DNA of 57,549 nt, taken from the IMG/VR virus record IMGVR_UViG_3300028025_000648, positions 1-57,549 of that record, one strand, 5' to 3'. Position 1 is the stretch's first letter. Each line of letters starts with the position of its first letter. The position numbers and the translations under genes are program-made. Source of the DNA: a virus. Its lineage: Duplodnaviria > Caudoviricetes. Below the pieces are notes generated by a model. That model did not search any database, was not told the DNA's origin, and worked only from the letters and a program-made list of their open reading frames with translations. Below are positions 23,533-57,549 of the stretch, piece after piece.

Positions 23533-24216
23533 TTAAGCCTCTTCCAAGCCTACAGTAATATTCCATAGGTCATGGTTGCCTGCCCCACGCTTAACAACTG
23601 TATAATCAAAACTAGAAATATACATTTGAACAATCTGATTATATTGGTTTAACTTTGTGTGTGCGTTTTTATCAACTCCAAAGTTAATGTACTTATCGTA
23701 TGCTAAGAAAACCCAAAACGGACCCTTATGATCTTGATACCACTTAAGCATTTCTGCACCGCCTGCACCACCATCTGCAGTGTACTCTGTGTTTGGTAAA
23801 TAGTTTAAACCTTCGCCTGTTCGTTGTGAATATTTTTGAGCAAAGTCAGGATCTGCCAAACCAGTTGTCTGGTCAAAATCTGGATAACTCTGATGACCTC
23901 TAGATGGAACCATCTGCCAAGATGTACTAATATTAAGTTTGTCTGCTATGTGGTATGACCTCATAGTTCCATTAATCATTCTTTGTCTTTTTTCAATTCT
24001 TTGTGGGGTAACAGAAATATCAGACCTATTATGATCTGTAAGGATAATAAAAGAATTTGCAATCTGGTCTGGGGTTAAACCAGTTTTATCTGAATACTCC
24101 TCATAGCCAGAAGGGATATAACGGCCATTAGAGAGGACTCCAGGAGTATCTGACCAAAGCATACCTTGAGGTCTTCCAAACCTCTGTCTGCCCTGCATAT
24201 AGCCTAATGATGCCAT
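23533..24216 (-). CDS. Distal tail protein-like
   Basis: Directly after the tape measure; RMINGTMRSY...WNITVGLEEA. Confidence 0.6.
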   Translation of the reverse strand: MASLGYMQGRQRFGRPQGMLWSDTPGVLSNGRYIPSGYEEYSDKTGLTPDQIANSFIILTDHNRSDISVTPQRIEKRQRMINGTMRSYHIADKLNISTSWQMVPSRGHQSYPDFDQTTGLADPDFAQKYSQRTGEGLNYLPNTEYTADGGAGGAEMLKWYQDHKGPFWVFLAYDKYINFGVDKNAHTKLNQYNQIVQMYISSFDYTVVKRGAGNHDLWNITVGLEEA

Positions 24217-42070: not shown

Positions 42071-45000
42071 TTATACCGCTATCTTGGTTGTAGTTGACCA
42101 CGTTACATCGTTATAAACACGAACATCCTCTGGCGCAACCGAAATTCCATCTACTTCATCGTCTACAATAATTCTATTTGTGCCCATATACTTGTCATAA
42201 ATAATAGTTGGATCAATAGAATAAAGATTAATTGTATTAACAATCTTAACTTCGTTCCAGGTGTAAGCGTTCTCCCAGTAATCCCAGAGCCTTGGGGTGC
42301 CATCGTCTTTAATATCTCCCCAAGTTCTAACCTGAACACGCTGGTTCTGCTCAAGGTTAGTAGCAAGGTAGTAAGAGACATTATTATAGGTTAATGGTCC
42401 ATTTAGATTAATTCGACCTGTGTACTGGTCAAAACTAAGCAAATCTGTAAAGGCTATGGACAAAACAGTCCACTCTTCATTTGTTAGGTAAGGTGTTTGA
42501 ACAGACTGACCATTTACATAATACTGAACCGTGTCAATTATTGCATTTGTAAGTCTATTGACTGCGTATACGTAGCCACGCTGACCACTAGCATCACCCT
42601 GTAAATAGAAGTCATAAATTCCGTTCTTATGATCAACAGATAAGATTAGCATTGCTCCTGTAGGAAATACTCTATTGGCAAACTTTGCCCACATCTGAAT
42701 CGTACTAACTTCTGTACCAAGTCCCTTTTGTACGTTTACTGGAATAGAGATACCTCTTTCAGTTACTTCTGAGAAATCCCCTTGAATTCTCCAACCAGAG
42801 TGCTTGTTTAAGTAAAGATAAGGGGTGCTACCCTTATATGTTGAAATAGGGTTCTTGCCTTTAAAGTCATAGTAAATACCAGTCTTCTTATACGGATAAA
42901 CTGGAACACCAAACTTTGTTCCAATCTCTGTGAACTGCTTTCTTTCAAGAACCTGAGAAGCAAGTTGTAGTTTTCTAAACTTGACTGGGTGATGAAGAAT
43001 TCCTTCCGAATTAAAGTCTAAGTGATAAACCAAAGCAATGTCATTAAAGTCTACAGAGTTATTTTGTCTATCCTTCGTTGGTGGATAAATAATAGTTCCA
43101 TCTATAACCTCGTAAGCAGTATCTTCCCAGTTACCAGAAATGAGGGCTGGATCTGCTGTTCCCTTAACTCTAGCAGTAGCAAAATTTGGGAAGTCGACTA
43201 GATTAGTATTTGCTCCATCATTTGTATACTGGAATGAAATGTAAGATCTAACAGCGCTTCTTTCGGTGTCATAATAATAGTACTTGTCTGAGTCTTGAGA
43301 CATATCTTCATAGTTATCCCAACCGCTATAAAAGTTATTATCTAGGGATGCATATGTCTGTTGGATTGGTGAAGAGTATCGAATTGCTAAATCTGAATAT
43401 GTCCAGGATGAAGTGGACTCTAAAGATTTTGTTTCAAGTGGCTCAGGAAAGTCTAGGTTAAACTGAATAGAGTCTACATCATAGAATCGATTTCCATCAT
43501 AATCTTCTGTATACTTTGCAAAATAAGACAAAGGCATATAGTCTTCCCAGTATCCAGATACAGCAATGTCTGCAAACATCAAGCCATATTTTTCAATAAC
43601 CTTAAGTGTATAGTTGGCAGTATGTGCAAGCATTTGTGTTGCTACGGTTGATGAATGTAGGAAAAGGCCTTCTTGGTCATACTTAGAAGAGATCTTTCGG
43701 TTGTTATATGATGCGTCAAATCCAAATCTATAAACCTTACCTGTAAAGGTTGTTACTTTATCTCCTGCTACAAGAACTGTAAGGTTGGATTGATTAGTAA
43801 AGAATCTGTTGATACCTATAATAGGTTGGCTGGATAGATTTTTGATATTAATTCCTGCTGTAAATTTTGTATTTGATGAGACTGTGTGCTCCTGTATTAA
43901 CGTATTTACCCCTGAAGACAAGAACCTATATGATAGGGTATTTCCATTAATCTGTGCAGTTAAAGAATCTTTTGTGATCTTATTATCTATTTTAAATAGC
44001 ACCTGATTTACTGCTGTTCCGTCAGTTTCAAAAACACCATACAGGCTTTCTACAGTCTCACTAAGAACACCAAGACTTTCAAAGAACATAAAGCCAAGTG
44101 TAGTACTCCATCCAGAGTTAGGTCTAAATGTAAAGTACTTATCTGTTGCAGAAGACTCTGCAGACTGCATTTGGTCAAACCACTCTTGGCTAGTTTTTGA
44201 GCCAAGAGAAAACTCAGGCAGTTTATAATCTGGAAGAGTTAAGAACTTTGAAGAGGCTTCTAGGTTGCTAAAGAATGCTTGTCTCCAAGTTGCAAAATCT
44301 GGATAGTTATAGTTAACAGCGTAATCAGCAAAAGAGTAATCATTAAACACTGTAGTTCCATTAAGAGATGCATTAGTTGTTTCTGGTGCTACAACTGCCT
44401 GGCCCCATACCCATCTTCTTTTTGCTACCGTGGTAGGAACAGCATATGAGTAAATAGAAAAAGAATCAATATCAATTGGATATACATCTGCGTATGCGTA
44501 GAATCCTAACCAGTCTTGGCTTTTACCAGTGCCATCAAATTCAGATGGTAGACCGATGTTTGTTTGATCAAATGGGATTTCTGCAACTTCTTCGCCATTT
44601 AAGACTAGCGTTACAGTATCTTTAATGATTCTAATATGAATAAGCATAGGTCTATGCCATTCACCAACATAGTGAGATTTATAGTTATCCCCAACTACAA
44701 TAGTAAGGAATCCACCTTCAACATATAAACCATCATTTGAAGATATTGGGCCAAATATCTTTTTAGGCTCCAAGGTATCTGAACTTACTCTTATCCACAT
44801 TTCTGCTGTATAGTCATTATATCTACCACGATCATTTAAGAATCCGTACCCTGGCAAAATAATGGATGGATAGTTGACTCCAGAGATAACATTATCAAAA
44901 ATCTTAGTTACATTTGATGAGCCATATACAAGTGGAATACCAAAATACTTTGCAAACAGGTTTGAGTTATTTGCTAAGTAGTATCCATTTAGTGTAGACG

Positions 45001-45700
45001 CTCCGTAAGGAACGGCATCAATAACTTTTAGAGATGAAGGCAATGCAATATCAGATGGCATGGCTGATGCTCTTACACCAACAGAATTTTTATTAAAATC
45101 TTCTGACCACTGACCAACACTTAACCCATTGATAAGAAAGTCATAGTCATTAATACCTCCGCCAGACACAACGCTAATTCTAATCACTAACTTGATTGCT
45201 GTTGCCCCAACTGGCGGAAGTTCAAATGTGTTTGAATAAAACTGCCAAGTATTTGCATCCAAAGAAGATAGTACAACACTCTGTAAAACATCTATGGTAG
45301 TTGAAGTTACGGAATCATAATATTGATATCCATACTGAATTGTTTCAGCATATGGGTTATCAAAATAAATGTTAAAACCAATAGCCCAACTAGCCAACGA
45401 TCTATCTAAATTGCTAAGGTTAATATTATAAGCACTTACAGCCTCAATCTCCATAGGAGAAGATGTTGGAACAGACCCCGAAAGCCTACTAACAAGACTG
45501 CTCTTGATAGGAGTTGTTTCTGGAATTGGATCTTCCTGAGTTGCGGTAGCATTAGTCAAAGTCCATTGACCAGAGGAATCTAGCCTTCTTTGAACTTCGC
45601 TAATTGTAGATAGATAGTCTACCCTCTCGTTGAGCATCCAAACAGCCAAGGGATGCTCTGAGTTAATTTTTTCTACGTATAGGTTAGATTGGGTAGTCAT
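42071..45700 (-). CDS. Large virion protein with LamG/concanavalin-like domain
   Basis: 1209 aa; HPLAVWMLNE, YTAEMWIRV...LVLNGEEV...IDSFSIY pattern. Confidence 0.6.
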   Translation of the reverse strand: MTTQSNLYVEKINSEHPLAVWMLNERVDYLSTISEVQRRLDSSGQWTLTNATATQEDPIPETTPIKSSLVSRLSGSVPTSSPMEIEAVSAYNINLSNLDRSLASWAIGFNIYFDNPYAETIQYGYQYYDSVTSTTIDVLQSVVLSSLDANTWQFYSNTFELPPVGATAIKLVIRISVVSGGGINDYDFLINGLSVGQWSEDFNKNSVGVRASAMPSDIALPSSLKVIDAVPYGASTLNGYYLANNSNLFAKYFGIPLVYGSSNVTKIFDNVISGVNYPSIILPGYGFLNDRGRYNDYTAEMWIRVSSDTLEPKKIFGPISSNDGLYVEGGFLTIVVGDNYKSHYVGEWHRPMLIHIRIIKDTVTLVLNGEEVAEIPFDQTNIGLPSEFDGTGKSQDWLGFYAYADVYPIDIDSFSIYSYAVPTTVAKRRWVWGQAVVAPETTNASLNGTTVFNDYSFADYAVNYNYPDFATWRQAFFSNLEASSKFLTLPDYKLPEFSLGSKTSQEWFDQMQSAESSATDKYFTFRPNSGWSTTLGFMFFESLGVLSETVESLYGVFETDGTAVNQVLFKIDNKITKDSLTAQINGNTLSYRFLSSGVNTLIQEHTVSSNTKFTAGINIKNLSSQPIIGINRFFTNQSNLTVLVAGDKVTTFTGKVYRFGFDASYNNRKISSKYDQEGLFLHSSTVATQMLAHTANYTLKVIEKYGLMFADIAVSGYWEDYMPLSYFAKYTEDYDGNRFYDVDSIQFNLDFPEPLETKSLESTSSWTYSDLAIRYSSPIQQTYASLDNNFYSGWDNYEDMSQDSDKYYYYDTERSAVRSYISFQYTNDGANTNLVDFPNFATARVKGTADPALISGNWEDTAYEVIDGTIIYPPTKDRQNNSVDFNDIALVYHLDFNSEGILHHPVKFRKLQLASQVLERKQFTEIGTKFGVPVYPYKKTGIYYDFKGKNPISTYKGSTPYLYLNKHSGWRIQGDFSEVTERGISIPVNVQKGLGTEVSTIQMWAKFANRVFPTGAMLILSVDHKNGIYDFYLQGDASGQRGYVYAVNRLTNAIIDTVQYYVNGQSVQTPYLTNEEWTVLSIAFTDLLSFDQYTGRINLNGPLTYNNVSYYLATNLEQNQRVQVRTWGDIKDDGTPRLWDYWENAYTWNEVKIVNTINLYSIDPTIIYDKYMGTNRIIVDDEVDGISVAPEDVRVYNDVTWSTTTKIAV

Positions 45701-45733: not shown

Positions 45734-47764
45734 TTATAAAACTTTTAACTCACAAGCATCTGTTGTGCAGTAGGCTTCGCCCTGAGCATCAAGATTTTCG
45801 ACTCCATCGTAGATAGCATTCCAATTAATCTTAGCAATCTTTCCAATATAGTCGTTGTATTCATCCTTGGTAATCTGAGTATAAGGCTGCTGAGGATATG
45901 TCTTATTGCCCATTGGAAGGAATGAGACTGCCTTTAACTGTCCCTCGTACATATGAAGAGCAGGAGCAATAAACTTAGACTCTGTTTCCTTGTCAAATGA
46001 TAGCGTTACAGAAACACCATTATCTGACCAGTACTTCTGAGCAGTTGCTGCCAAACCAATCTTCTCAAACATACTTACATCCTTCTCAGAACGTGGGTGT
46101 CCTGAGTGTACTGGGAAGTAGACTACTGATGTATTTGCTGATACAAGGTCTGGCTCAATCTTATACCCCGCTGCTTTAAACAAATGAAGCATTGGGTCTG
46201 TCTCACCAAAACGAATAGCACGAAGGAAGAACTCTCCTCCAGGACCCCAGTGAACTCCAGGGGTAGCACCAGAAAGAAGTGATACAGATCCTGATGGCTT
46301 AACTGTTGTTACACGAATTGATTCACGAACGCATAACCATTCTGAGTACTGCTTGTCATAGTGACGAATCTTGTTGTACCCTTCGTCCATCCACTCACGA
46401 GTAGTTGGCAAACCATTGGTATCTGCAAATGATGCAATGCCTGTAAGAGATGTACCAATACGGCGGTTGCGCTGCATAATACCGTTTGTAACTTGCCAGT
46501 GTGTTGGCATAAGAGTTACAGTCTTTCCATAAAGATAAGCAAACTTCAGTGTCTTGAGAAAGTCCTCCTTGGATTCGTGTCGATTAAGATGTACCTCAAC
46601 GAGAGTACAAAGTTCGTACGACTCCAATGGCTGCTCTGCACACGGATTAAAGCCCATCACACGATAGTCCTTACCATCTGCTGGATCTGCAAGACGACCA
46701 AAGTTTCTAGCAACATCAAGCCAGATAAAGCCTGGCTCTCCGTTATCAGAAATCACATCAACATAGTCTTCATATTTTGTTCCGACTGTTGCTGAAATTG
46801 AATTGTTTGACATCCACGCCCATCCTGGGTTCTCTGGATCAAACGAGTTGCGCTCTGGAAATGCTTCTGCATTTTTAAGATTCATAAAGTCAACATCGTC
46901 TGCTGCTCCAAGTGCAAGGGTAGCAGAACGACGAACATTTCCTGATACTACGCAAGTACCAATAAGATTAACAATGTCTACAATAGCACGAGCATCAAGT
47001 AGTTCTCCTGCTCTAGAACCGATAACTTTGCGAATGCGTGTATGTAGATCAATAAGTGGTGCTGGACCGCTGGCGACCCCACCAAAGCCCTTAATAGGTG
47101 CTCCTAGAGGACGTATGAGATCATAGTTGAACTCCTGAACTGGCTGGTTCTGACGAAGGAATGAATTAATAAGTAATCTAACAGACTCTACCCAGCCCTC
47201 ACGAGTATCTGGGATTTCATAGATAGAGGCTGGTTCTGTTGGAGCATAGATAGGCATAGCCTTTTCAGCACCAACTGTATCAAACCCTACTCCGATACCA
47301 AGCATCAAGGCATCCATTGTCCAGGCAAATAGAGCACCTGGGTCATTACGATCAAGGTCACGAGTAGAAACCATTGCACAGTTTTGAAGGGAAGCAGAGT
47401 TACGTTTCTCCATAGTCATAGGAGTTCCAAATGCCCAGAGTCCACGACCTGGAGGTGTCCACTTCAATTCAAACATTCTCTGGAATGCTTCCTGAGCAGA
47501 CTTCTGAGCCTTATTATCATTCCATGGTAGACGATTCTCTTTAGCGTGGTTCTTCTGAACTGAGTACATACCCTCGATTACACGACGACAAACCTCATAC
47601 CACTTTTCCTTTGTACCGTCTTCCTTTACACGAGAATAAGTTCTAATAAATGTGATTTCTCCAAGAGAGTTGCCTCCTGCATCTGTGAATCCAAATGGTG
47701 CTGGGACTTCTGAATATTTTGTAATGAAGTCATCAACTAGACGAAACGAGAAAAAATCTGACAT
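45734..47764 (-). CDS. nrdJ: Class II (adenosylcobalamin-dependent) ribonucleotide reductase, monomeric RTPR type
   Basis: PPGRGLW, NCA, GNVRRSA, NPCAEQ, TVKPSGSVS, C-terminal CTTDAC; no small-subunit gene nearby. Confidence 0.92.
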   Translation of the reverse strand: MSDFFSFRLVDDFITKYSEVPAPFGFTDAGGNSLGEITFIRTYSRVKEDGTKEKWYEVCRRVIEGMYSVQKNHAKENRLPWNDNKAQKSAQEAFQRMFELKWTPPGRGLWAFGTPMTMEKRNSASLQNCAMVSTRDLDRNDPGALFAWTMDALMLGIGVGFDTVGAEKAMPIYAPTEPASIYEIPDTREGWVESVRLLINSFLRQNQPVQEFNYDLIRPLGAPIKGFGGVASGPAPLIDLHTRIRKVIGSRAGELLDARAIVDIVNLIGTCVVSGNVRRSATLALGAADDVDFMNLKNAEAFPERNSFDPENPGWAWMSNNSISATVGTKYEDYVDVISDNGEPGFIWLDVARNFGRLADPADGKDYRVMGFNPCAEQPLESYELCTLVEVHLNRHESKEDFLKTLKFAYLYGKTVTLMPTHWQVTNGIMQRNRRIGTSLTGIASFADTNGLPTTREWMDEGYNKIRHYDKQYSEWLCVRESIRVTTVKPSGSVSLLSGATPGVHWGPGGEFFLRAIRFGETDPMLHLFKAAGYKIEPDLVSANTSVVYFPVHSGHPRSEKDVSMFEKIGLAATAQKYWSDNGVSVTLSFDKETESKFIAPALHMYEGQLKAVSFLPMGNKTYPQQPYTQITKDEYNDYIGKIAKINWNAIYDGVENLDAQGEAYCTTDACELKVL

Positions 47765-47800: not shown

Positions 47801-47915
47801 ACTTTAACTTTTTCAAAGTACTTCCCAATTATAGCACTATTATTTTTGTAAAACAAACGTAAAACAAAAAGCCTACACTGTTACTTTAGTGTAGGACTTT
47901 AAGTTTATTAAAGTA
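47801..47915. promoter_or_regulatory. nrdJ control region: TGCTATAAT (47828-47836) flanked by two ACTTT-N9-AAAGT palindromes
   Basis: 47801-47820 and 47896-47915 match at 17/20 positions; GTAAAACAAA repeated at 47848 and 47859. Confidence 0.55.
47861..47895 (-). terminator. Rho-independent terminator
   Basis: CCTACACTA-AAGTAA-CAGTGTAGG-CTTTTTGTTTT. Confidence 0.7.
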
Positions 47916-47932: not shown

Positions 47933-48166
47933 TTAAACAGTAGCAGGTGGAAGATTACCAAGTTCTTCTTGATGAACTTTCATTGCTGCTTCAAGAATTG
48001 CTAGTGCCTTTTGTGCTGCTTCGATTTGTACTTCAGACTCAATACCTTCTGCAGTCTTAAGATTAAGACTATACTGGTATGCTTCTGCTGCAAACTGCTG
48101 AATACGGTTCTCTAGCAGTTGACGCTTTTGATCATTTGTTAGCATTGCTGCAAAGTCAATTGACAT
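47933..48166 (-). CDS. Small coiled-coil protein
   Basis: 77 aa, own TGCTATAAT (48196-48204) and AGGGG RBS. Confidence 0.7.
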   Translation of the reverse strand: MSIDFAAMLTNDQKRQLLENRIQQFAAEAYQYSLNLKTAEGIESEVQIEAAQKALAILEAAMKVHQEELGNLPPATV

Positions 48167-48210
48167 TTTTACCCCTTTGGTTTGACTGTTTTATAATTAT
48201 AGCAGATAGG

Positions 48211-48648
48211 TTAAATATCTGCAAGTTGCCAAGATAAGGAATCTTCATTCCAAATATAAACATTTCCATCTTCTGGCATAGGTGTTGGGGCTTCCCATAA
48301 ATATGTATCTGAATCCTTTGTCCAAGATGGATATGGTTGAGGTGCTGCAAATCCAGTACCGTCCCATGTAAAACCAATTCCTGCATAGTTTTTATGTAGT
48401 GGTCTTTTAGGTATTGTTTTTACAATGTATCTGTCTGGACCAGAAGTATTGAAATATCCTAGGTCAACCCAGTCTGGATTTTCTTCTTGTATCTCTTCTG
48501 TTTCCCCATCAATCATATACTTATTGCCATACGTATTATATGAAGTTTGTATCCAAGTGCCACCGTATGTTGCCTCACACGACTCTGATGATTGAGCAAC
48601 AATTACTTCAGTAACTAATCCATCATTAATTCTTGCAAAGTGACCCAT
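48211..48648 (-). CDS. Cassette 3 gene D: MAHFA-family fibre-associated/chaperone-like protein
   Basis: MGHFARI...WIQTSYN...KNYAGIG...PQPYPSW...WEAPTPMP...WNE; start 48648 coupled to the upstream stop. Confidence 0.75.
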   Translation of the reverse strand: MGHFARINDGLVTEVIVAQSSESCEATYGGTWIQTSYNTYGNKYMIDGETEEIQEENPDWVDLGYFNTSGPDRYIVKTIPKRPLHKNYAGIGFTWDGTGFAAPQPYPSWTKDSDTYLWEAPTPMPEDGNVYIWNEDSLSWQLADI

Positions 48649-50261
48649 TATGGAGTTCCCCATTTCGCTTTTAGGTATCCTTCAACCTTGTTTCTATCTG
48701 TATCAGATAATGCAGAAGGATAAAGAATAATCTCACAAAGATATGCCAGAGGAGCCATTGAGTCTCCAGCGCCATCAACACTTGCTCCTATTGAGTTTTT
48801 ATCTCCAGCAGAGGCTATAGTTCCTTGTGTTATAGTGCTAGTTGCAGCAACACCATTTTTATATGTTTGAACTGTTACACTTGTTGATGAAGCAGCAGTT
48901 GCTTTATATACAGCAACATCAGCAGTAGTTCCAGTATATGAAAGTGAAGAGTTTTGTGTTGCATTTCCAATTTTAGAAATTGATAACGCAGAAGGACCAG
49001 CATTATTTCCACCCATCTGAAAAGCAGTAAGGCTATTTCTTCCAAGAAGTGCAGGATAGTTACCAGCACTTGATGTAGAATTAAAAACAAAAAATGCTGT
49101 AAAGGTGTTTTCTGACCAGTTGCTTAGAGATGTGTTTGTTAAATATTTGATAGCACTAGAAGGAAAAAATCTTATTCCTGGCAATCCATTTTGAAGATTT
49201 GTTACATACAAAGGTTCTTTACCAGAAGGAGCAGTAAAGTTATGACCGTTACCGCTTTTGTCTAACCAATTAGTTACATTAGAACCAGAAAAACTAATCC
49301 TTGTATCGTCAGATGCATCAAGCCAAAGGCTTGCACCGCTAACGGGCAATGCCAACCCAGTATAAAAAACGCTTGATGATAAAAACTTATGGTAAGTATA
49401 TCCACCAGTTGTATTTACTGTTCCACCATAAGCAACTTGCGAACCTGGATAACGGATAAGAACAATTCCTGATCCACCTGTTGATCCGTTAGAAACATAA
49501 GCACCACCTGCTCCACCACCAGTATTAGTTGATCCGTTAGTTTGACCTGTTCCAGTAGAAGAGCCAGTTCCTCCACCGCCAAGACCACCAGTTCCACCTG
49601 TACCACCACCACCGCCACCGCCACCTGCATAATAACCACTATTGGCACCAGTGCTTGTGGGTGTTGCAAAATCAGTTATCTGTACACCTATACCACCATT
49701 AGCATTAACAGAACTACCGTTAGCACCAGCACCTCCACCGCCGCCAGATCGGTATGCGGGTGAGCCACCACCTTGACTACCGTCATATCCTTGGCCAGTT
49801 GTGCCTGCTCCACCTACACCATAAATTCCTAATTGTTCACCACCACCGCCACCTGAGCCACCAGATAATCCACTTTGAACTGGATTTGGTCCTCCAGATC
49901 CTCCACCACCAAGTGATGTTATAGAAACAGTATCACCAATCATTGAGGAGTTGTTTCCATTTGTTCCTCTTGAATCCGTGCTACCAGCACCACCGCCACC
50001 TACAGTTATTGTAAAAGGAATATTTCTTGCAAGACTTGCAGCAGTTTCTAATGCTCCACCACGGCCAGTTGCCGTTACAGTTGAGCGTAATCCTCCTGCA
50101 CCACCGCCACCCGATGTTCCATTACCTCTTCCAGTTCCTCCACCGCCTGCTACTATAAGATAGTCAACTGTAATATTAGATGGTGTTACTTGATCCCAAA
50201 CCCTAGATCCTTTTGCAAGACCTTGGCTAACTCTTGATTGGCTAAATCTTGTTACTGCCAT
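48648..50261 (-). CDS. Cassette 3 gene C: glycine-rich adhesin-like protein with C-terminal LamG-like domain
   Basis: DYLIVAGGGG...GGSGIVLIRYP followed by LWLDASD...WLDKSGNG...EIILY...VEGYLKAKWG. Confidence 0.75.
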   Translation of the reverse strand: MAVTRFSQSRVSQGLAKGSRVWDQVTPSNITVDYLIVAGGGGTGRGNGTSGGGGAGGLRSTVTATGRGGALETAASLARNIPFTITVGGGGAGSTDSRGTNGNNSSMIGDTVSITSLGGGGSGGPNPVQSGLSGGSGGGGGEQLGIYGVGGAGTTGQGYDGSQGGGSPAYRSGGGGGAGANGSSVNANGGIGVQITDFATPTSTGANSGYYAGGGGGGGGTGGTGGLGGGGTGSSTGTGQTNGSTNTGGGAGGAYVSNGSTGGSGIVLIRYPGSQVAYGGTVNTTGGYTYHKFLSSSVFYTGLALPVSGASLWLDASDDTRISFSGSNVTNWLDKSGNGHNFTAPSGKEPLYVTNLQNGLPGIRFFPSSAIKYLTNTSLSNWSENTFTAFFVFNSTSSAGNYPALLGRNSLTAFQMGGNNAGPSALSISKIGNATQNSSLSYTGTTADVAVYKATAASSTSVTVQTYKNGVAATSTITQGTIASAGDKNSIGASVDGAGDSMAPLAYLCEIILYPSALSDTDRNKVEGYLKAKWGTP

Positions 50262-50263
50262 AA

Positions 50264-50593
50264 CTAAGCCGTAATTTCTGAACCAAATGCTGCAAATGTA
50301 AGATTTGTATCTGAAGAATAAATATCAAGTTTATCTGCAGCGTTCATTGTAATTCCAAGAGTGAGTGCTGTTGTATCATTAGCAGCAATGGCAATATCAT
50401 ATGCAATATAATGTTTTGTTGCAAGAGTTTCATTATCTGGTCTAACCATAATTCTAAATGTTTTTATTGCAGCAGCACGATTACAAATAATAATTGTTGA
50501 AATCACTGCTTCTGTTGATGAAGGAACTGTGTATAGATTAGTGTTTAATGCTACACCTTCTACCTGTCCTAATACTTTATATACGTTTGGCAT
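50264..50593 (-). CDS. Cassette 3 gene B: small beta-sandwich protein
   Basis: MPNVYKVLGQ...LYTVPS...STIIICN...AFGSEITA. Confidence 0.7.
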   Translation of the reverse strand: MPNVYKVLGQVEGVALNTNLYTVPSSTEAVISTIIICNRAAAIKTFRIMVRPDNETLATKHYIAYDIAIAANDTTALTLGITMNAADKLDIYSSDTNLTFAAFGSEITA

Positions 50594-50594
50594 G

Positions 50595-50822
50595 TTACAT
50601 TCCTCCTAGTAAAAATGTTGTTGGAAGTGGATCTGTAACTACCGTCGCCCATTCCACGCCTGCTGTTTGTGACGAGTTGGCCTTAAGAAAAGTTCCGTTA
50701 GCACCAACAGTTACTTTTGCTGCTGTATCTGCAGCGGTACCTGCAATTAAATCACCCTTGGCATCTATAACCTTTGGCTTAGTACCCTGGGAGTTATCGG
50801 CTAGTTCTCTGGCTCTTGTCAT
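50595..50822 (-). CDS. Cassette 3 gene A: short AKGD-motif fibre segment
   Basis: IDAKGDLIAG...VGANGTFLKANSSQTAGVEW; leaderless, 8 nt after TGGTATAAT. Confidence 0.7.
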   Translation of the reverse strand: MTRARELADNSQGTKPKVIDAKGDLIAGTAADTAAKVTVGANGTFLKANSSQTAGVEWATVVTDPLPTTFLLGGM

Positions 50823-50831
50823 GATATCTTA

Positions 50832-51188
50832 TTATACCACTTCTTCCCAATTTTTATGATTTTCGTTCCAAGTATATAATCTTCCATCTATAGGATATGG
50901 TTCTGGTGCTTCCCATTGGCAGGTATCCTCATTTAAAGTCCAAGAAAGATATCCTTGTGGAGGTATAAAAGCATCTCTTAACTCATCATAAGAATATCCA
51001 ATGCCTGCATAATTTTTTCTAAATCCATTGATCTTTGCATTATAAGATGTTCTTATACATCTTTGCTTTCTAATACTTCCATAATATTCTTCCCAGTCTG
51101 AAATACCATCGATAACTTCATCTTCATCACGACCTGTAATTACTTCAACTACTATATTATTATCATCTAAAAATGCATAATGTGCCAT
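50832..51188 (-). CDS. Cassette 2 gene D: MAHFA-family protein
   Basis: MAHYAFLDDNNIV...RTSYN...RKNYAGIG...SWTLNE...WEAP. Confidence 0.75.
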   Translation of the reverse strand: MAHYAFLDDNNIVVEVITGRDEDEVIDGISDWEEYYGSIRKQRCIRTSYNAKINGFRKNYAGIGYSYDELRDAFIPPQGYLSWTLNEDTCQWEAPEPYPIDGRLYTWNENHKNWEEVV

Positions 51189-52057
51189 TATATAACTACC
51201 GTTCCTGTTCCCTGAGTAAATCTATAAACACGATATCCTGCTCTTGCTGGTTGTGTATAAGTTAAACCAATTGGAATTGTTGTTATTGGTGGATATGTAT
51301 CTAAATATGCAATTACAACTATACCAGATCCTCCAGCACCTCCAGATTGACGGGCATAAGGACTTGGTTTTCCTGCTCCACCTTGGCCACCATTTCCAGT
51401 ATTAACCGTTCCTGCTGAACCTGCTGAACCAGTATCTGCACCACCACCTGCACCACCTAATGAATAAGTAACAGATGTTCCAGTTATTGAAGATGTTGCC
51501 CCTGGTCCTGAAACAGCCTGACCAGCATAGGTTCCATTACCGCCAACTCCTGTAGCACCTCCGCCTGCAGCACCTGTTCCTCCACCAGAAGAATAGTTAT
51601 TTGATCCAGCATAACCTTCTACAGGAGTATATCCTCCTTGGTTTCCTGCGCCACCAACACGATTAGCAGTTCCATCATATTCACCAGATCCTCCACCAGA
51701 TCCTCCAGGGCCTCCTGCTGCAACATTTGGCACATTACCTCCATAACCTCCACCAGTAGAAGATATTGGGCCAAAGGTGGATGTTACACCTTTTGTTGAC
51801 TCAGCCCCGCCTGCACCAACTGTTATAGAATATGAGCCTGCTAAAACCTGATTTTGTAAAAGTCTATATCCACCTGCACCACCGCCACCAGCACCACGAG
51901 ATCCTGACACATCGGAGTATCCTCCACCGCCACCGCCACCGACAACCAAAATATCTGCAATCGGTGCTGTAGGTACTGGAGTAGTTCCATACCAAGCGCT
52001 TATAGAATTATTTCCTGGAACTGTATTTAGCCTAGTGCGTTGTCCATAACGACTCAT
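51188..52057 (-). CDS. Cassette 2 gene C: glycine-rich adhesin-like protein
   Basis: DILVVGGGGGGG...GGSGIVVIAY...YRVYRFT. Confidence 0.75.
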   Translation of the reverse strand: MSRYGQRTRLNTVPGNNSISAWYGTTPVPTAPIADILVVGGGGGGGYSDVSGSRGAGGGGAGGYRLLQNQVLAGSYSITVGAGGAESTKGVTSTFGPISSTGGGYGGNVPNVAAGGPGGSGGGSGEYDGTANRVGGAGNQGGYTPVEGYAGSNNYSSGGGTGAAGGGATGVGGNGTYAGQAVSGPGATSSITGTSVTYSLGGAGGGADTGSAGSAGTVNTGNGGQGGAGKPSPYARQSGGAGGSGIVVIAYLDTYPPITTIPIGLTYTQPARAGYRVYRFTQGTGTVVI

Positions 52058-52410
52058 TATACAATCCTATTGACATAACCAAAAATGTTAATTACGTTAC
52101 CAGTTGCTGCAAATGCCCTGACCAATAAACCATTATTAATTAAAATACCTGGGGCAACAAGAACTAAACCATTGCCTTCTGCAGGAATAGTAATCTCAAT
52201 ATGATCATTAGGTGAAGATACTCCACCCCACTCAAGAGTTAGTTTAACTGAAGCATTAGAAGTATTATGAGCATATAGCCAAACTTCATCAAATGAAGAG
52301 CCTCCTGCTACTGCTGTATGAATAGTTGTTCCTGCTGTTGCTGTTTGAGCAACTAGGATTCCTCTTCCGTTTGTGCTCCCTGAGAGCATTTGTTTTGAGA
52401 ATGTAGCCAT
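52057..52410 (-). CDS. Cassette 2 gene B: small beta-sandwich protein
   Basis: Start reassigned to ATG 52410 (MATFSKQ), 6 nt after TATAAT; ends IFGYVNRIV. Confidence 0.7.
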   Translation of the reverse strand: MATFSKQMLSGSTNGRGILVAQTATAGTTIHTAVAGGSSFDEVWLYAHNTSNASVKLTLEWGGVSSPNDHIEITIPAEGNGLVLVAPGILINNGLLVRAFAATGNVINIFGYVNRIV

Positions 52411-52424
52411 TTGTCTATTATACC

Positions 52425-52727
52425 CTATCCGAAGATCTGTCCAGCCAAGATTGCTTGGTCTGAAGTGTAGTCTGGTTCTGTTACTGTACCCCACTCTAAT
52501 CCTGTTGATGTAGCAGAATTAGCCTTTAAAAATGTTCCGTTTGTTCCTACACCTAATCTTGCGACGGTATCAGGAGCAGATCCAGCAAGCAAATCACCCT
52601 TAGCATCAATAACTGTAGACTCTACAAAGTTAGCGTGTGAGTGTGGTCCAACCCCTACTGGAATCCATGTATCAGTCTGAGCATCATAAACATATGCTGG
52701 TCTTGGAGTTGTACCTACTGTTGCCAT
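52425..52727 (-). CDS. Cassette 2 gene A: short AKGD-motif fibre segment
   Basis: IDAKGDLLAG...VGTNGTFLKANSATSTGLEW; ends AILAGQIFG. Confidence 0.7.
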   Translation of the reverse strand: MATVGTTPRPAYVYDAQTDTWIPVGVGPHSHANFVESTVIDAKGDLLAGSAPDTVARLGVGTNGTFLKANSATSTGLEWGTVTEPDYTSDQAILAGQIFG

Positions 52728-52728
52728 T

Positions 52729-53070
52729 TTATTCTGTTACCTCGTCCCAAGATAAAGTTTCTTCATTCCAAACATATACTCCTTCAGGCCTAGCAACAGG
52801 TGCTTGCCATTGAGCATTTTCATCAAGTGTCCAAGAGTCAAAAGGCTTAGGTGCAATAAATGCTCCGTCATCTCCAAATTCTGGATCCCAAAGAAAACCT
52901 TGTCCTGCATAGTTATATCTAAAGTTAGCGTTATAACTGGTTTGAATCCAAGTACCGCCAAGACCTAGGTCATCAGCCATATATTCTTGTCCACGGTATT
53001 CCATAGCATTAGGAACTACAAGGACACGAGTAACAATATTGTTTTCGTCTACTTCTGCAAAGTGTGCCAT
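52729..53070 (-). CDS. Cassette 1 gene D: MAHFA-family protein
   Basis: MAHFAEVDENNIV...WIQTSYN...YNYAG...SWTLDE...WQAP. Confidence 0.75.
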   Translation of the reverse strand: MAHFAEVDENNIVTRVLVVPNAMEYRGQEYMADDLGLGGTWIQTSYNANFRYNYAGQGFLWDPEFGDDGAFIAPKPFDSWTLDENAQWQAPVARPEGVYVWNEETLSWDEVTE

Positions 53071-53309
53071 TATGGAATCATCACTCCCGCTTCTTCTTCT
53101 GTTAAAGGTTCTCCTGCTGCAAGTTTTGCTCTTGCTGAAACTTTTAGCGCTTCAATTCTTTCTTGCTCTGCAAGTCTTGCTGCTTCCCATTCTTCATAAG
53201 CAGCAACATCTTGATCACGCTGTGCAATCTCTGCAGCGGTATAAGCAACAATAAATTGCTCTCCTGTTTGAACATCAATAATCATTTTGTTTAACACTTC
53301 TTCTGACAT
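53070..53309 (-). CDS. Small helical fibre-chaperone-like protein
   Basis: 79 aa, AKLAAGEPLTEEEA; GGAGG RBS. Confidence 0.65.
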   Translation of the reverse strand: MSEEVLNKMIIDVQTGEQFIVAYTAAEIAQRDQDVAAYEEWEAARLAEQERIEALKVSARAKLAAGEPLTEEEAGVMIP

Positions 53310-53337
53310 TATTGCCTCCTTTGTCTATTATACATCA

Positions 53338-54690
53338 TTACAACACTGGATACCTAATAATAACAATTCCTGAACCACCAGCACCACCAGTTGTAGAGCC
53401 ACCTATTGCACCACCACCACCGCCGCCTGTATTTGGAGTTCCACTACCACCAACAGCACCACCACCGCCTGCTCCTGCAGAACCGTTATTTCCTGGGGTG
53501 TAAACTGGACCTGCACCACCGCCTGCATAAGTAACAGATGAACCAGTAATTGAAACGGCTACACCAGCACCACCATTACCACCATTTCCTACTGAACCGT
53601 TAGTACCAGCCGTACTTGCACCACCGCCACCGCCACCACTTTGTCCATTAACACTACTATCACCAGCACCAGTTCCACCAGCACGACCTTGATTAGTTGT
53701 ACCAGAGCCTGCTGCGCCGACAAATCCTGTCACATTTCCTCTACCGCTACCGCCTCCACCAGATCCACCTGTGCTACCAGCGTTACTAGCACGACCACCA
53801 AAACCACCACCTAAGGATGTAATAGTTGAAAAACTAGAATTACTACCTTGATTGCCAACGGCTTGAGTGCCACCAGCACCACCTGCTCCAACAGTTACTA
53901 CATAATTTTGAGCAGTGACAGAAATAGGAGATTCTAGTGAACCACCACCTCCCGTTGCGGTTACAGTAGAACGCAATCCACCTGCACCGCCACCGCCACC
54001 TACATCTCCTCCGCCACCGCCACCGCCACCGACGACGAGATAGTTACAGGTCAAATTTCTTTGTGGAATAAATAATCCAGAAGATAAAAAGGAATGATAC
54101 CAGAATGAACCATCTGTTGTAATATTATCTCCTCCGCTTGCATAAGGAGCAAGTGTTGGTGTAGTTCCTAATGTTACAACTCCATAAACAGAAACTGTTG
54201 AATACCTCATAAAAGGAATAGTTCCATTTCCTATAGTCAAAGTCATTTTTGAAATTGCAGCGCCATTATATTGACCTGCTACCAATTCAGTAAATGCTAT
54301 TGCTGAATTTTGTTCTGAATTTGATGTTATAGATATTGTTTTAAGTCCTGTTGATCTATAATTAGAAACATAAAAACTTGAATTTGAAAAAACATTTGAA
54401 GTAGCGCTATTACAATTTCCATCACCAATAAATAGTCTATTGTTATTTACTAAAACAACTCCTGATCCATTGGTACCGTTTCCATTTCCGTATAAATATA
54501 AATCTGAGTGACCTACTGAGTCATCATTAAAATTAGCAAAATAGTTTGCAGTAACTGCAGCAGTATTTCCTCTAGCAGAAATTACAACATAAAAATCTCT
54601 ATATCCTGTTGTAGGTAAGTTATCAAACACTATTGAAGTAACTTCTGAAGTTACCTCTACCCTTCTTAACAAAACATTATTTATTGTCAT
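53338..54690 (-). CDS. Cassette 1 gene C3: beta-domain plus glycine-rich adhesin-like protein
   Basis: N-domain SIVFDNLPTTGYRD...VSVYGV; NYLVVGGGGGGG...GGSGIVIIRYP. Confidence 0.75.
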   Translation of the reverse strand: MTINNVLLRRVEVTSEVTSIVFDNLPTTGYRDFYVVISARGNTAAVTANYFANFNDDSVGHSDLYLYGNGNGTNGSGVVLVNNNRLFIGDGNCNSATSNVFSNSSFYVSNYRSTGLKTISITSNSEQNSAIAFTELVAGQYNGAAISKMTLTIGNGTIPFMRYSTVSVYGVVTLGTTPTLAPYASGGDNITTDGSFWYHSFLSSGLFIPQRNLTCNYLVVGGGGGGGGDVGGGGGAGGLRSTVTATGGGGSLESPISVTAQNYVVTVGAGGAGGTQAVGNQGSNSSFSTITSLGGGFGGRASNAGSTGGSGGGGSGRGNVTGFVGAAGSGTTNQGRAGGTGAGDSSVNGQSGGGGGGASTAGTNGSVGNGGNGGAGVAVSITGSSVTYAGGGAGPVYTPGNNGSAGAGGGGAVGGSGTPNTGGGGGGAIGGSTTGGAGGSGIVIIRYPVL

Positions 54691-54700
54691 TTAAATTACC

Positions 54701-56062
54701 TCACGCCCTCAAATATCTAATGATAACAATTCCTGAACCACCTCTTGAGCCAGAACCTGCGGAGTCACTTCCTCCTCCGCCACCACCGCCACCGCCTGTG
54801 TTTGGAGTTCCACCTACAGAACCTTGGGTTCCAAAGTCTGCACCTTTTGATCCGCCACCTAAGCCACCAGAGCCACCGCTGGCAGCGTTTGCACCACCAC
54901 CACCGCCACCACCATAATAAACAACTCCTGATACATTTTGACCCGTTCCTGTAACAAGTCCCCAAGAAGAAAATAATGCTGTGCCAATTCCTCCAGCACC
55001 ACCGCTTCCACTGCTTGGCTGAGTAGATCCAACTGCTCCTGCTCCACCACCGCCTGGTGCTCCTAATTGAAAAGAAGAACTTCCTCCTGCAAAACCTTCT
55101 ACAGGGGTATAACTACCTGAGTTTCCTGCTCCACCTGCACCGCCACCATTTGTTACTAGAAGAGTTCCAGCACCACCACCACCTGAACCACCTGAACTTC
55201 CTACGTTAGGGTTTCTTTGTAATGATGAACCACCTCCACCACCTGATGAAGAAAATGAGTTAAATGTAGATGCTTCTCCATTAGATGCAAGTGCAGTTGC
55301 TGATGCAGAACCATTTCCGCCTGCTCCTACTGTTACAGTATAGTTTGTTGCCGTTAAAGATTGAGTAGTACTTCTTACGCCACCTGCACCGCCACCACCT
55401 CCGTTATCACAGCCTCCACCGCCTCCTCCTCCAACTACTAATACATCAGCCGAAATAGACTGTGTTGGAGTAAATGTTGCCGATGAAGCAAATACATGAT
55501 AAAAATGTGTAGAATCTGCGTATACAACTCCACCTAATGCTTTTGTTCCAGAAAAACCTTCTGACTTAATTCCATATATATTGATTGTAGATCCCGAAGT
55601 AAAACCTGAACAGTCTGGTGCAATCATCCTAATTGAAGTAATGGCTTCAGTGCTATTGTTTGTAGATCCTCTCCATGTTCCAACACAAGACCCTACTCTA
55701 AAGTTTAAAAGTGTATCTCTTGATACTGCGCTTTTAAAAGTTGTCGTATTTCTAAAATCTTGAAGATGAAAAATCTGTAAAGATCTTGATGTTCCTACTG
55801 ATCCAAGAACCATAGATGTTGAATTGGATGTATTATCACTAGTAGCAGGGGATGTTCCATAACCATAAAGTCTAATAGAAGAGTTATAACCTAAAGTTAC
55901 TCCATTAAACTGAAGTCCAACAAAAGATACAGCATTTACTGGTGCAAAATCACAAACAATCTCTAGATCTGAATAATCTGTATAGGAACTCACATCAATA
56001 TCTATTGTAGAGGTTGTTGATGTTAATGTTCTTGTAAAAAGTGGTATCTTTGTATTAGCCAT
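54701..56062 (-). CDS. Cassette 1 gene C2: beta-domain plus glycine-rich adhesin-like protein
   Basis: N-domain ...YSDLEIV...INIYGI; DVLVVGGGGGGG...GGSGIVIIRY. Confidence 0.75.
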   Translation of the reverse strand: MANTKIPLFTRTLTSTTSTIDIDVSSYTDYSDLEIVCDFAPVNAVSFVGLQFNGVTLGYNSSIRLYGYGTSPATSDNTSNSTSMVLGSVGTSRSLQIFHLQDFRNTTTFKSAVSRDTLLNFRVGSCVGTWRGSTNNSTEAITSIRMIAPDCSGFTSGSTINIYGIKSEGFSGTKALGGVVYADSTHFYHVFASSATFTPTQSISADVLVVGGGGGGGCDNGGGGGAGGVRSTTQSLTATNYTVTVGAGGNGSASATALASNGEASTFNSFSSSGGGGGSSLQRNPNVGSSGGSGGGGAGTLLVTNGGGAGGAGNSGSYTPVEGFAGGSSSFQLGAPGGGGAGAVGSTQPSSGSGGAGGIGTALFSSWGLVTGTGQNVSGVVYYGGGGGGGANAASGGSGGLGGGSKGADFGTQGSVGGTPNTGGGGGGGGGSDSAGSGSRGGSGIVIIRYLRA

Positions 56063-56673
56063 TATCTAGTCCCATACAAAGATATCTTAGAGTTTGCTGA
56101 AATATTGCCACCATCACCAATTGAAAATGTTAAAGATCTAATAGGATCATTACTTCTCCAAACATTGCTTTCTATAGTTACCTGACCTGATCCATTGATT
56201 GAATAGCCACCAATATGGTTTACAGTTTTATTTTTTTGTGGGTGTGAGTAGTCTAGAATATCTACAATCAAAACCCCATAGTAGTTTGCTGCTTGGTTTC
56301 CTGCTGGGATTCTCTCTAAAGCAACTCCTGTAAAAGGAACGTCATTGTCTGTTGAGACTGCTGTTCCTGATCCTCTTAGAGCATGTCTTGAATAAGTAGA
56401 ACTTGAGTCTTCATTAAATCTGCACATTAAAAATGTTTCCGATGATGCTCTGTCTGAACGAACCATAATTCGCAGTTGTAGATGTTCGTACCCTTGTGGA
56501 ATGCCAGCCATTGTAATTGTAGAAAGTCCTGATGGAATAGTTATAGATGCTAAAGAATCATATCCGCCTACTGGAGTCCAATCAACCCAAGTAGTATTTC
56601 CAGCAAGCATGCTCTTATAAGAGACTTTATCGCTTGCTAGAGAAGATGCGTCTGAAAACTTATAAACGCCCAT
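56062..56673 (-). CDS. Cassette 1 gene C1: beta-domain only (paralog of the C2/C3 N-domains)
   Basis: TITMAGIPQGYEHLQLR...ISLYGTR. Confidence 0.7.
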   Translation of the reverse strand: MGVYKFSDASSLASDKVSYKSMLAGNTTWVDWTPVGGYDSLASITIPSGLSTITMAGIPQGYEHLQLRIMVRSDRASSETFLMCRFNEDSSSTYSRHALRGSGTAVSTDNDVPFTGVALERIPAGNQAANYYGVLIVDILDYSHPQKNKTVNHIGGYSINGSGQVTIESNVWRSNDPIRSLTFSIGDGGNISANSKISLYGTR

Positions 56674-56675
56674 TA

Positions 56676-56978
56676 CTAAACAATCTCCACTCCACTGATG
56701 TGGAAGTTCATTGTGGTTGCTGATGCTCCACCTGTGATTGTTTGAGTATTGGTAAGAACTTGCTTTAGGTCAATTACTGTTGAGTCATATGCACCTACGG
56801 TTACGAGTGTTGCAATGTTTACTCCACCTAGGGCTAGTGTGAATGATCCAATTGTTCCCGCAGTATTTGTAACGACAATATTTGTTACTACTGCTGTTAC
56901 ACCTGTTGCGGTGTATAGTGTAGTGCCTGTATTTGTTGTTGCAGCACCACGAAATAAAGTTTTACTAGTTGTAGCCAT
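56676..56978 (-). CDS. Cassette 1 gene B: small beta-sandwich protein
   Basis: TTLYTA...TNIVVTN...ISGVEIV; GGAGGT RBS. Confidence 0.7.
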   Translation of the reverse strand: MATTSKTLFRGAATTNTGTTLYTATGVTAVVTNIVVTNTAGTIGSFTLALGGVNIATLVTVGAYDSTVIDLKQVLTNTQTITGGASATTMNFHISGVEIV

Positions 56979-57012
56979 TAGTTACTACCTCCGATACATA
57001 ATTGTAGCATAC

Positions 57013-57549
57013 TTAGAATACTCCCATAATTGCTTTAATCTCAATTGAGGTTAGGTCTGGATCTGGCACTGATGCCCATTGCAGCCCCGTCGCTGTTGAT
57101 GAGTTTAACTTAAGATATAGACCATCTGTGTCTGCTGACAAAATTGCTGGGGTATTATCAGCACTTGCTGTAATAATATCACCCTTAGCATTAACAAAAC
57201 TATTATTGATTACTGTGGCTACGTTAACTGGTGGAATAAGGAGAACCTGAAGGGTATCTCCAACCTGAGCAGCAGATCCAAGAACAATGCTTGTGCCAGA
57301 TGCTGCGGTATAGTCAGAACCACGAACAAGCATTACACCATTGAGGTATACTTGCTCTGTTGAAGGTGAGTATGAGAGGGTTGTTGCTTCATCTCCCTCG
57401 CCAGTAAATGTAGTTCCTGCCTCTGTTACAGTCTTTGTCCAACGAGTAAGTTCTACGGCTGTTGGATTTGTGGTTCCATTTGTATCAAGCCAAATCTGTC
57501 CTTCAATTTCTGATGTAGGCATTGAGTCTTGTGCAACACCACCAGAGAT
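57013..57549 (-). CDS. Cassette 1 gene A: fibre protein C-terminal part (start outside the window)
   Basis: Frame open to the window end; VYLNGVMLVRGSDYTA domain, then VNAKGDIITA...YLKLNSSTATGLQW; ends AIMGVF. Confidence 0.7.
   Translation of the reverse strand: MSGGVAQDSMPTSEIEGQIWLDTNGTTNPTAVELTRWTKTVTEAGTTFTGEGDEATTLSYSPSTEQVYLNGVMLVRGSDYTAASGTSIVLGSAAQVGDTLQVLLIPPVNVATVINNSFVNAKGDIITASADNTPAILSADTDGLYLKLNSSTATGLQWASVPDPDLTSIEIKAIMGVF

Follow-up and report, generated by a model that had tools for sequence, protein, structure and literature searches.

The IMG/VR virus record IMGVR_UViG_3300028025_000648, whose whole stretch of 57,549 nt was analyzed here (the window), carries one tight block of 16 consecutive open reading frames (ORFs; 47933-57549) in which a four-gene cassette, A-B-C-D, occurs in three diverged copies. 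From position 57549 downward, the gene order is A1 B1 X1 C1a C1b Y1 D1, A2 B2 C2 D2, A3 B3 C3 D3, and Z, with copy 1 enlarged to seven genes by X1, a second C gene, and Y1. All features of the block lie on the minus strand; the intergenic gaps range from -1 to 44 nt, and there are five TAATG stop/start overlaps. The block is probably a single operon that encodes side-fibre or “brush” modules of a large aquatic siphophage, with an A stub, a B junction, and a C tip plus its D partner in every module. A preliminary description of this DNA had reported the same gene order three times, and its ORFs, at the positions that it gives, and its sequence motifs were all found on the minus strand. Its account of the cassette contents was correct for A, B, C, and D, and overlooked X1 and Y1 in the first copy.

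Four diverged protein families

All four C proteins are members of PF21722 (Gly_rich_2; gathering cut-off 24.3 bits, 226-position model), which they cover from model positions 5-11 to position 225, and they are exactly the four matches to this family in the window. C1a (54701..56062, 453 aa) consists of an X-like N-terminal domain and PF21722 at residues 196-450 (66.2 bits), and also matches phrog_2295 (E 9e-51). C1b (53338..54690, 450 aa) has the same layout, with PF21722 at residues 208-447 (62.8 bits). C2 (51188..52057, 289 aa) is a nearly bare PF21722 domain with a short C-terminal beta region (58.4 bits), and C3 (48648..50261, 537 aa) carries PF21722 at residues 27-271 (54.7 bits) followed by an extra C-terminal domain of ~250 aa, this C-terminal part matching phrog_10356, a “virion structural protein” (E 1.2e-16). 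In blastp within the window with composition correction off, the six C pairs match at E 4e-34 to 1e-68, with identities of 36-49%. No Pfam family other than PF21722 was found in the C proteins, and none of them matches a gp38 family model.

The AlphaFold2 model of C2, built on a 54-sequence alignment, has a mean predicted local distance difference test score (pLDDT) of 88.3 and a predicted template modeling score of 0.85. It contains no helices and ~55 strand residues out of 289, so that ~80% of the chain is neither helix nor strand. Its top Foldseek matches in the PDB are the chains 9d93_Qa and 9d93_Qb (E 2.6e-3) and the fibre of cyanophage Pam3 (7yfw_a and 7ypx_A; prob 0.99, template modeling (TM) scores 0.38-0.45), with ALK glycine-rich domains next. 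Chain 9d93_Qa is the “Tail wing brush, gp33” in the solved tail tip of mycobacteriophage Bxb1 (9D93), and gp33, the best match of the C2 model, is itself a PF21722 member (45.4 bits). Searches of the C2 sequence and the C profile against PDB chains gave nothing meaningful; in these and the corresponding A, B, and D searches, a GTPase and an MS2 coat match look like composition artefacts. Overall, C is a protein of a known kind, a polyglycine-rich distal tail protein, and the earlier proposal of a polyglycine-rich tip or fibre is supported.

The A proteins match PHROG tail-fibre families, in agreement with their previous reading as a stalk. A1 (57013..57549) is a fibre stub of 169 aa counted from the ATG at 57522 (phrog_38058, tail fiber, E 3.7e-18), with a tail-fibre N-terminal region, one copy of a 43-aa repeat that we call the A-core, and the C-terminal sequence ..IKAIMGVF (type T1). 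A2 (52425..52727, 100 aa) and A3 (50595..50822, 75 aa) are mini fibre stubs, barely more than one A-core repeat and a tail, which reads ..AILAGQIFG (type T2) and ..TFLLGGM (type T3), respectively. The same repeat occurs in 3-4 tandem copies in fibre proteins of 636-714 aa. Within the window, A1 and A2 share 41% identity over 71 aa (E 1e-16), A2 and A3 67% over 48 aa (E 7e-20), and A1 matches A3 at E 8e-10. A search of the A1 sequence against PDB chains returned nothing meaningful.

The three B genes encode small proteins of three subtypes: B1 (56676..56978, 100 aa, all-beta, subtype 1), B2 (52057..52410, 117 aa, subtype 2; phrog_30535, E 2.2e-37), and B3 (50264..50593, 109 aa, subtype 3; phrog_1276, E 9.5e-7). 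Their relatives elsewhere reach 62-63% identity for B1 (the B genes of loci L060 and L041), up to 79% for B2, and 50-65% for B3. This is the weakest paralogy of the four parts: B1 and B2 match by blastp only at E 1e-3, B3 matches neither of them by blastp, and no PHROG match was found for B1, which is tied to the family through profiles only. Separate profile searches started from B1, B2, and B3 converge on overlapping sets (7, 21, and 14 shared sequences), the B1-seeded search recovers B3, and a 32-sequence alignment of the family is coherent. The two PHROGs are labelled “unknown function,” the Atlas model of B3 (pLDDT 0.80) has only unnamed viral clusters as neighbors, and the B profile found nothing meaningful among PDB chains. 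The A, C, and D copies are paralogous at E 8e-10 to 1e-68, well outside what chance would give, and the B copies are related through profiles.

D1 (52729..53070, 113 aa), D2 (50832..51188, 118 aa), and D3 (48211..48648, 145 aa, with an insertion of ~30 aa) all match phrog_7759 (E 5.6e-32, 5.2e-37, and 2.1e-24), which is labelled “unknown function,” and match one another by blastp within the window (D1/D2 E 4e-20, D1/D3 E 5e-19, D2/D3 E 1e-19). D1 has a TAATG overlap with Y1, D2 with C2, and D3 with C3, in the last case by 1 nt with the C3 stop; D3 most likely starts at 48648, with the conserved MGHFA, rather than at 48663. Met1, His3, Ala5, Thr47, Ser48, Gly64, and Trp92 are invariant, and identity to relatives is ~60-70% for D vs. 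~40% for C. The relatives of D form a virus-only family with at least 8000 stand-alone clusters at 90% identity, and all 120 of those listed are unnamed or “hypothetical.” The AlphaFold2 model of D2 (pLDDT 91.9) has only unnamed viral proteins as neighbors in Atlas and BFVD, and searches of the D2 sequence and the D profile against PDB chains gave nothing meaningful.

There are also 693 longer D relatives. Among the 120 listed, one is fused to PF21722 (P0149) and one to a Peptidase_S74 fibre (P0156), and fusions to enzymes comprise a 2-oxoglutarate (2OG)-Fe(II) oxygenase (PF13759) in three, an O-methyltransferase in two, and a sulfotransferase in one; proteins P0122, P0129, P0145, and P0184 are examples of such enzyme fusions. 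Some D relatives, such as P0130 (384 aa) and P0140 (228 aa), contain long acidic, coiled-coil-like insertions together with up to four repeats of a C-terminal Trp-rich hairpin (..SW.LNE...WEAP.P.P.DG..Y.WNE....W). A Trp hairpin motif akin to the latter is present at the N- and C-termini of several fibre proteins, including A1, A2, and a protein of locus L059.

Conserved pairings in related phages

The genes around D were compared in two surveys, one of 80 IMG/VR loci found with D2 (92 D genes) and one of 78 loci from prokaryote genome assemblies, mostly contigs of metagenome-assembled genomes (MAGs). In the IMG/VR loci, a C gene is located within 100 nt upstream of D in 78 of the 92 cases and within 1.2 kb in 86; in the assemblies, the corresponding counts are 64 and 68 of 74 testable D genes. 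Taken over three surveys in all, ~85% of D genes directly follow a PF21722 gene. By contrast, the genes downstream of D are unrelated in 74/92 and encode A-motif proteins in only 3/92, indicating that C-D is the conserved unit. The full four-gene order, which the preliminary description had expected to recur as a unit, does not: B comes before C in just 13 of the 69 D-centered loci that could be tested, and an unrelated family with tail-fibre PHROG matches takes this place in 23. D occupies the position typical of a chaperone-type gene, directly downstream of C and, in the window, joined to C2 and C3 by TAATG stop/start overlaps.

The C-D arrangement extends to cultured phages, as a PF21722 gene is found upstream of D in Greip, the Methylophilales phage Melnitz (genes 169-176; two C-D pairs), and P-RSM4. 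In the Pelagibacter phage Greip (MT375525.1), the D homolog gp58 follows gp59, which spans the start of the record and carries PF21722. The label that gp59 bears in the record, “DNA stabilization protein,” is probably an error, and a tail-fibre or tip protein is the likely identity. In the Prochlorococcus cyanomyophage P-RSM4 (GU071099.1, 33541-37874), genes annotated as carbamoyltransferase, 2OG-Fe(II) oxygenase, and ferrochelatase lie between PRSM4_046 (PF21722) and PRSM4_050 (D). A D homolog is also present in the complete chromosome of Methylophilaceae bacterium RH-M31 (L339, 860167-868529), possibly within a prophage. The other D hits in genome assemblies, mostly on short MAG contigs assigned to many phyla, probably represent binned phage DNA.

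A second pairing links B to the protein encoded upstream of it. In a B-centered survey seeded with single B proteins (226 loci, 262 B genes), the upstream protein ranges from 45 to 1441 aa in length and ends in a short hydrophobic peptide, and this peptide tracks the B subtype: ..IMGA(Y/L) with B1 (n=53), ..Q(I/V)F(G/S) with B2 (n=65), and ..FLLMG(A/G) with B3 (n=62). No cross-type pair was found among the 180 typed cases (chi-square 367), with 68 more tails left untyped, and additional tail types exist, e.g., ..AIAMAIVFGG. Tail conservation is limited to the last ~8 residues, and the measure is partly circular in that the tails were typed on those same residues. Each of the three tail/B types is used once in the window. 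Typed B genes within one locus also tend to differ, with 27 pairs of different type and 6 of the same type against a shuffled expectation of 0.33 same (p 0.014), under a null that depends on sampling.

In the 20 full cassettes, the similarity matrices of tail and B correlate (r 0.45, p 0.0005), as do those of C and D (r 0.52, p 0.0045), whereas B and C correlate weakly (r 0.22) and the correlations of B with D (r 0.08) and tail with D (r 0.12) are not significant. Because tail/B and C/D are correlated and B/C only weakly so, the cassette may comprise a tail/B and a C/D sub-module that are exchanged at a point between B and C. In addition, each B or D protein of the window has closer kin in other phages than in the window itself: B1 is 62% identical to its relative in L060, B2 58% to that in L048, B3 56% to that in L066, and D2 67% to those in L005 and L006, vs. 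at most 40% among window paralogs. This supports an exchange of the modules between phages, in line with the interchangeable cassettes suggested earlier, and it indicates that the copies are old or were gained by exchange rather than by recent duplication. A recent tandem duplication was accordingly considered and rejected, as the orthologs elsewhere are closer than the paralogs in the window. A DNA repeat search between the cassettes returned only glycine-codon runs, with no near-identical repeat and no recombination boundaries. Phase-variable shuffling was likewise rejected, given the lack of repeats and of any recombinase among the annotated genes. When the block was compared by megablast with 50,697 phage records, nothing matched.

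Proposed assembly of the tips and competing readings

In the arrangement that we consider probable, A would form a short fibre stub made of the 43-aa repeat and ending in the hydrophobic C-terminal peptide, and B, a small beta-protein of ~100-117 aa, would serve as the junction between this peptide and the distal protein. C, with its PF21722 polyglycine-rich core, would be the distal protein and the part that touches the host envelope, and D would be a small conserved protein translated in step with C that acts as a folding or assembly helper or is retained as a cap. The tips would all be displayed on the virion and bind host receptors. As the three modules have three different tail/B types, three or four different tips could be assembled in one cell without mis-wiring. 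The adaptor role formerly assigned to B is consistent with the strict tail/B type match, and that of D as a chaperone or cap binding C with the tight coupling of the two genes. What the data show directly are the family memberships, the synteny counts, the modeled fold of C, and the match between tail and B types.

Solved tail structures offer partial counterparts to this arrangement, and the previous statement that no characterized system has such a layout is only partly right, since it overlooks Bxb1 gp30/gp31/gp33, Pam3 gp24/gp25, and S16 gp37/gp38. In Bxb1, the wing consists of a gp30 base, a gp31 arm, and the gp33 brush and is dispensable, and small intermediary proteins attach gp33, a siphophage virion protein, to the tail tip (PMC12646305). 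The gene order resembles that of the window, with small proteins, a glycine-rich protein, and a small protein (gp31-gp32-gp33-gp34). However, gp31, gp32, and gp34 show no sequence similarity to A, B, or D (hhalign of B vs. gp31, prob 0.2%), and when profiles of A, B, D, X, and Y were compared with Bxb1 gp29-gp34, no significant match was found, only C matching gp33. The Bxb1 block also has one brush gene vs. three or four here, and it is without a D family member. Bxb1 gp32 (63 aa; L088, 9944-10135), encoded between the arm and brush genes, matches PF24243 (“Phage tail tip domain”) at E 5.4e-10.

In Pam3, the glycine-rich lattice of gp24 is the proposed host-recognition end of the fibre and is assembled with the chaperone gp25, which forms a 3:3 complex with gp24 and binds the side of its glycine-rich/TNF-like part (PMC9608196). 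The Pam3 fibre (7YFW, 7YPX) resembles the C2 model in fold, as given above, but the C proteins have no detectable sequence similarity to PDB chains, and the likeness of D to gp25 is at noise level (E 3.9). Moreover, Pam3 has a single one-copy fibre with its own baseplate-docking helix, without a separate stub or a B adaptor. In the T-even type Salmonella phage S16, the small glycine-rich adhesin gp38 caps the fibre end with a polyglycine lattice and variable distal loops (PMC9608196; PMC13243192), and both Pam3 7YFW and Bxb1 gp33/gp29 contain polyproline-II (PPII) helical bundles like those of S16 gp38 (PMC13243192). Gp38 binds gp37 directly (PMC9608196), with no B-like intermediary. The gp38 structure 6F45 is not among the C2 Foldseek matches listed. 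We know of no D-like downstream partner in S16.

The Tfa-type assembly proteins of Mu, P2, and lambda are encoded by a small gene directly downstream of the fibre or tip gene, as is D, and the N-terminal beta domain of the Pam3 chaperone is described as TfaMu-like (PMC9608196). D, however, belongs to no such Pfam family, and in the related locus L029 a Phage_tail_APC protein is located upstream of C, not downstream. The glycine-rich domain of the eukaryotic receptors ALK and LTK (7LRZ, 7NX3) is also a polyglycine lattice, and a likeness to ALK was remarked on by the Pam3 authors as well (PMC9608196). The C2 match to it is very weak (E 1.4-2.5, prob 0.02), and we do not claim homology. A full-text literature search, with supplements and the Bxb1 structure paper outside its reach, returned no paper dealing with PF21722/Gly_rich_2, with either the D or the B family, or with the cassette, and these genes are not discussed in the passages covered of the Melnitz paper. 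What is new is that the cassette layout is repeated, that D is a near-obligate partner of PF21722, and that the B family has type-matched fibre tails.

Several points weigh against an operon of stub, junction, and tip modules. The fibre block is more than 15 kb away from the tail-tip genes, upstream of the ribonucleotide reductase and portal genes. The Foldseek scores of C2 are modest, with none at E ≤ 0.001 and TM scores of 0.29-0.45, and the presence of polyglycine-II helices in C is suggested by family membership and the nearest folds of a model. No Pfam family was found for D1-D3, including Caudo_TAP and Phage_tail_APC. The D2 model has no significant Foldseek match among solved structures in the PDB (best E 0.25), and known fibre chaperones appear only at E >3 (TfaMu, 5yvq_B, rank 15, E 3.3; 7ypx_a, rank 19, E 3.9). 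The latter, a 162-aa Pam3 chain, is taken to be gp25 by its length, and the TfaMu/gp25 likeness of D is a lead only. In P-RSM4, a distance of 2.8 kb, occupied by the enzyme genes, separates D from the PF21722 gene. B is not specific to C: it is followed by C in 107/262 cases (with D after C in 71 of the 107), by X-domain proteins in 32/262, and by proteins outside the C model in 94/262, several of these non-C clusters also being glycine-rich. The joining of A, B, and C in this order, with the terminal peptide of A docking on B and B carrying the distal protein, is an inference. The main caveat for the tail/B match is that the two are adjacent, and co-inheritance would give the same match of types. 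The upstream fibre bodies within each type are mostly related by single linkage (52/52, 56/63, and 37/44), and this linkage control left function and co-inheritance unseparated. Finally, since the Bxb1 wing genes are dispensable, such tips may be accessory rather than primary receptor binders.

One alternative, which we regard as unlikely, is that D is a virion-borne docking domain on each tip that carries the next stub, so that the block would encode one serial or branched fibre, C1-D1-A2-B2-C2-D2-A3-B3-C3-D3. The gaps from D1 to A2 (1 nt) and from D2 to A3 (9 nt) fit this reading, as do A-motif proteins after D in loci L052, L059, and L060, and A2 and A3 are too short for an obvious baseplate anchor of their own. 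Fibre anchor domains are usually located at the N-terminus, and P0156 carries D at the N-terminal end of a fibre-like protein whose C-terminus is a Peptidase_S74 domain. The better conservation of D relative to C would also suit a docking function. This D-fibre fusion is, however, one protein among those listed, most loci have a single C-D pair, and the similarity of D is uncorrelated with that of tail or B. The surveyed genes downstream of D, unrelated in all but a minority and only three times A-motif proteins, likewise argue against a serial fibre.

About as improbable in our judgment is that the C proteins are accessory, low-specificity “brushes” for envelope lipids or glycans, the copies adding avidity or breadth rather than three specificities. 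The closest solved relative of C is the Bxb1 gp33 wing brush, low-specificity adhesion has been proposed for mycobacteriophage wings, and the portal of the window phage is closest to those of Streptomyces phages (45-48% identity). A close relative of Bxb1 lacks genes 30-35, and deleting gp30 leaves the phage viable, if modestly impaired (PMC12646305). On the other hand, S16 gp38 and Pam3 gp24 are described as specific host-recognition tips with the same kind of domain (PMC9608196). The divergence of the four C proteins is as expected under host-driven diversification, and the extra C-terminal domain of C3 also speaks against this reading. A role of D in a modification pathway, recruiting an oxygenase, methyltransferase, or sulfotransferase to the fibre so that C is modified and not chaperoned, is very improbable: the enzyme fusions, the 2OG-Fe(II) oxygenase and carbamoyltransferase genes between C and D in P-RSM4, and the invariant His3, Thr47, Ser48, and Trp92 would fit it, but Pfam and PHROG searches found no such enzyme gene in the window block, the six enzyme fusions stand among 120 listed proteins out of the 693 longer and at least 8000 stand-alone D relatives, and, as the oxygenase fusions retain an internal MAH start for D, these may be gene-calling read-throughs of neighbors.

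With the operon of separate A-B-C-D modules retained as the preferred reading, a more general scheme can be put forward tentatively, and we hold it as rather doubtful at present. Aquatic phages might use orthogonal plug-and-socket junctions in which the last 6-8 residues of a fibre are the plug, the B subtype is the socket, and the distal protein (polyglycine, X-domain, or other) is exchangeable. Several cassettes with different plugs would then avoid cross-wiring, and D would be the universal partner of polyglycine tips. If so, fibre wiring, and with it part of the host range, could be read in metagenomic phages from two short sequence features.

Polyglycine tips are known from a few solved phages, and here they occur in a repeated, modular gene set with unstudied small partners, which provides a concrete hypothesis for how several different tips are assembled on one virion. 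Members of the D and B families are found in cultured phages that infect major aquatic bacteria (SAR11, OM43, roseobacters, and picocyanobacteria), and the C-D rule together with the tail/B type rule amounts to a simple, testable way of annotating aquatic virome genes now labelled “hypothetical,” which number in the thousands. Cultured test systems exist in Greip and Melnitz.

Additional block genes and genome context

X1 (56062..56673, 203 aa) shares homology with both C1a and C1b, in their N-terminal domains, and with tandem X genes of loci L053 and L062; it has no Pfam or PHROG match. In these two loci, arrays of 3-5 tandem X-domain genes lie upstream of C-D pairs (L053, 30-6661; L062, 6290-7928), and such arrays may represent a second repeated tip family. 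Y1 (53070..53309, 79 aa) is probably helical and weakly matches phrog_15153 (E 0.0057); its relatives precede a C or a D gene in L053, L062, L073, L059, and L060. Z (47933..48166, 77 aa), the final gene of the block, has no Pfam or PHROG match. A terminator-like hairpin with a T-run (47872-47895), identified by a consensus scan only, is located between Z and the ribonucleotide reductase gene. Promoter-like sites in the scan numbered 27 vs. 25.7 expected from shuffles, so promoters for individual cassettes cannot be claimed. At the other end of the block, the contig stops 27 nt upstream of the A1 ATG, with the A1 frame open to the window end, and further cassettes may therefore lie outside the window. 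The linear IMG/VR record is estimated by CheckV to be ~53% complete.

All large genes of the window are on the minus strand, and no tRNA genes were found in it. Past the hairpin, the block is followed by genes for a class II ribonucleotide reductase and a 1209-aa protein, and then by portal, protease, and capsid genes; the Streptomyces phages whose portals are 45-48% identical to that of the window have genomes of 120-133 kb. Beyond the head genes lie tail genes and one for a tape measure protein of 2791 aa, from which it follows that the phage is a large siphophage. The tape measure protein (24216-32591) matches endolysin and transglycosylase PHROGs at C-terminal residues ~2590-2679, and points to a non-contractile tail of great length with a putative built-in wall-degrading domain. 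The ribonucleotide reductase (45734-47764) is of the B12-dependent type, and its gene has the fibre operon on one side and the head genes on the other, an unusual site for a nucleotide-metabolism gene. The 1209-aa protein (42071-45700), whose gene is immediately upstream of that for the portal, lacks PHROG matches and has a 51% identical homolog at the same position in locus L054.

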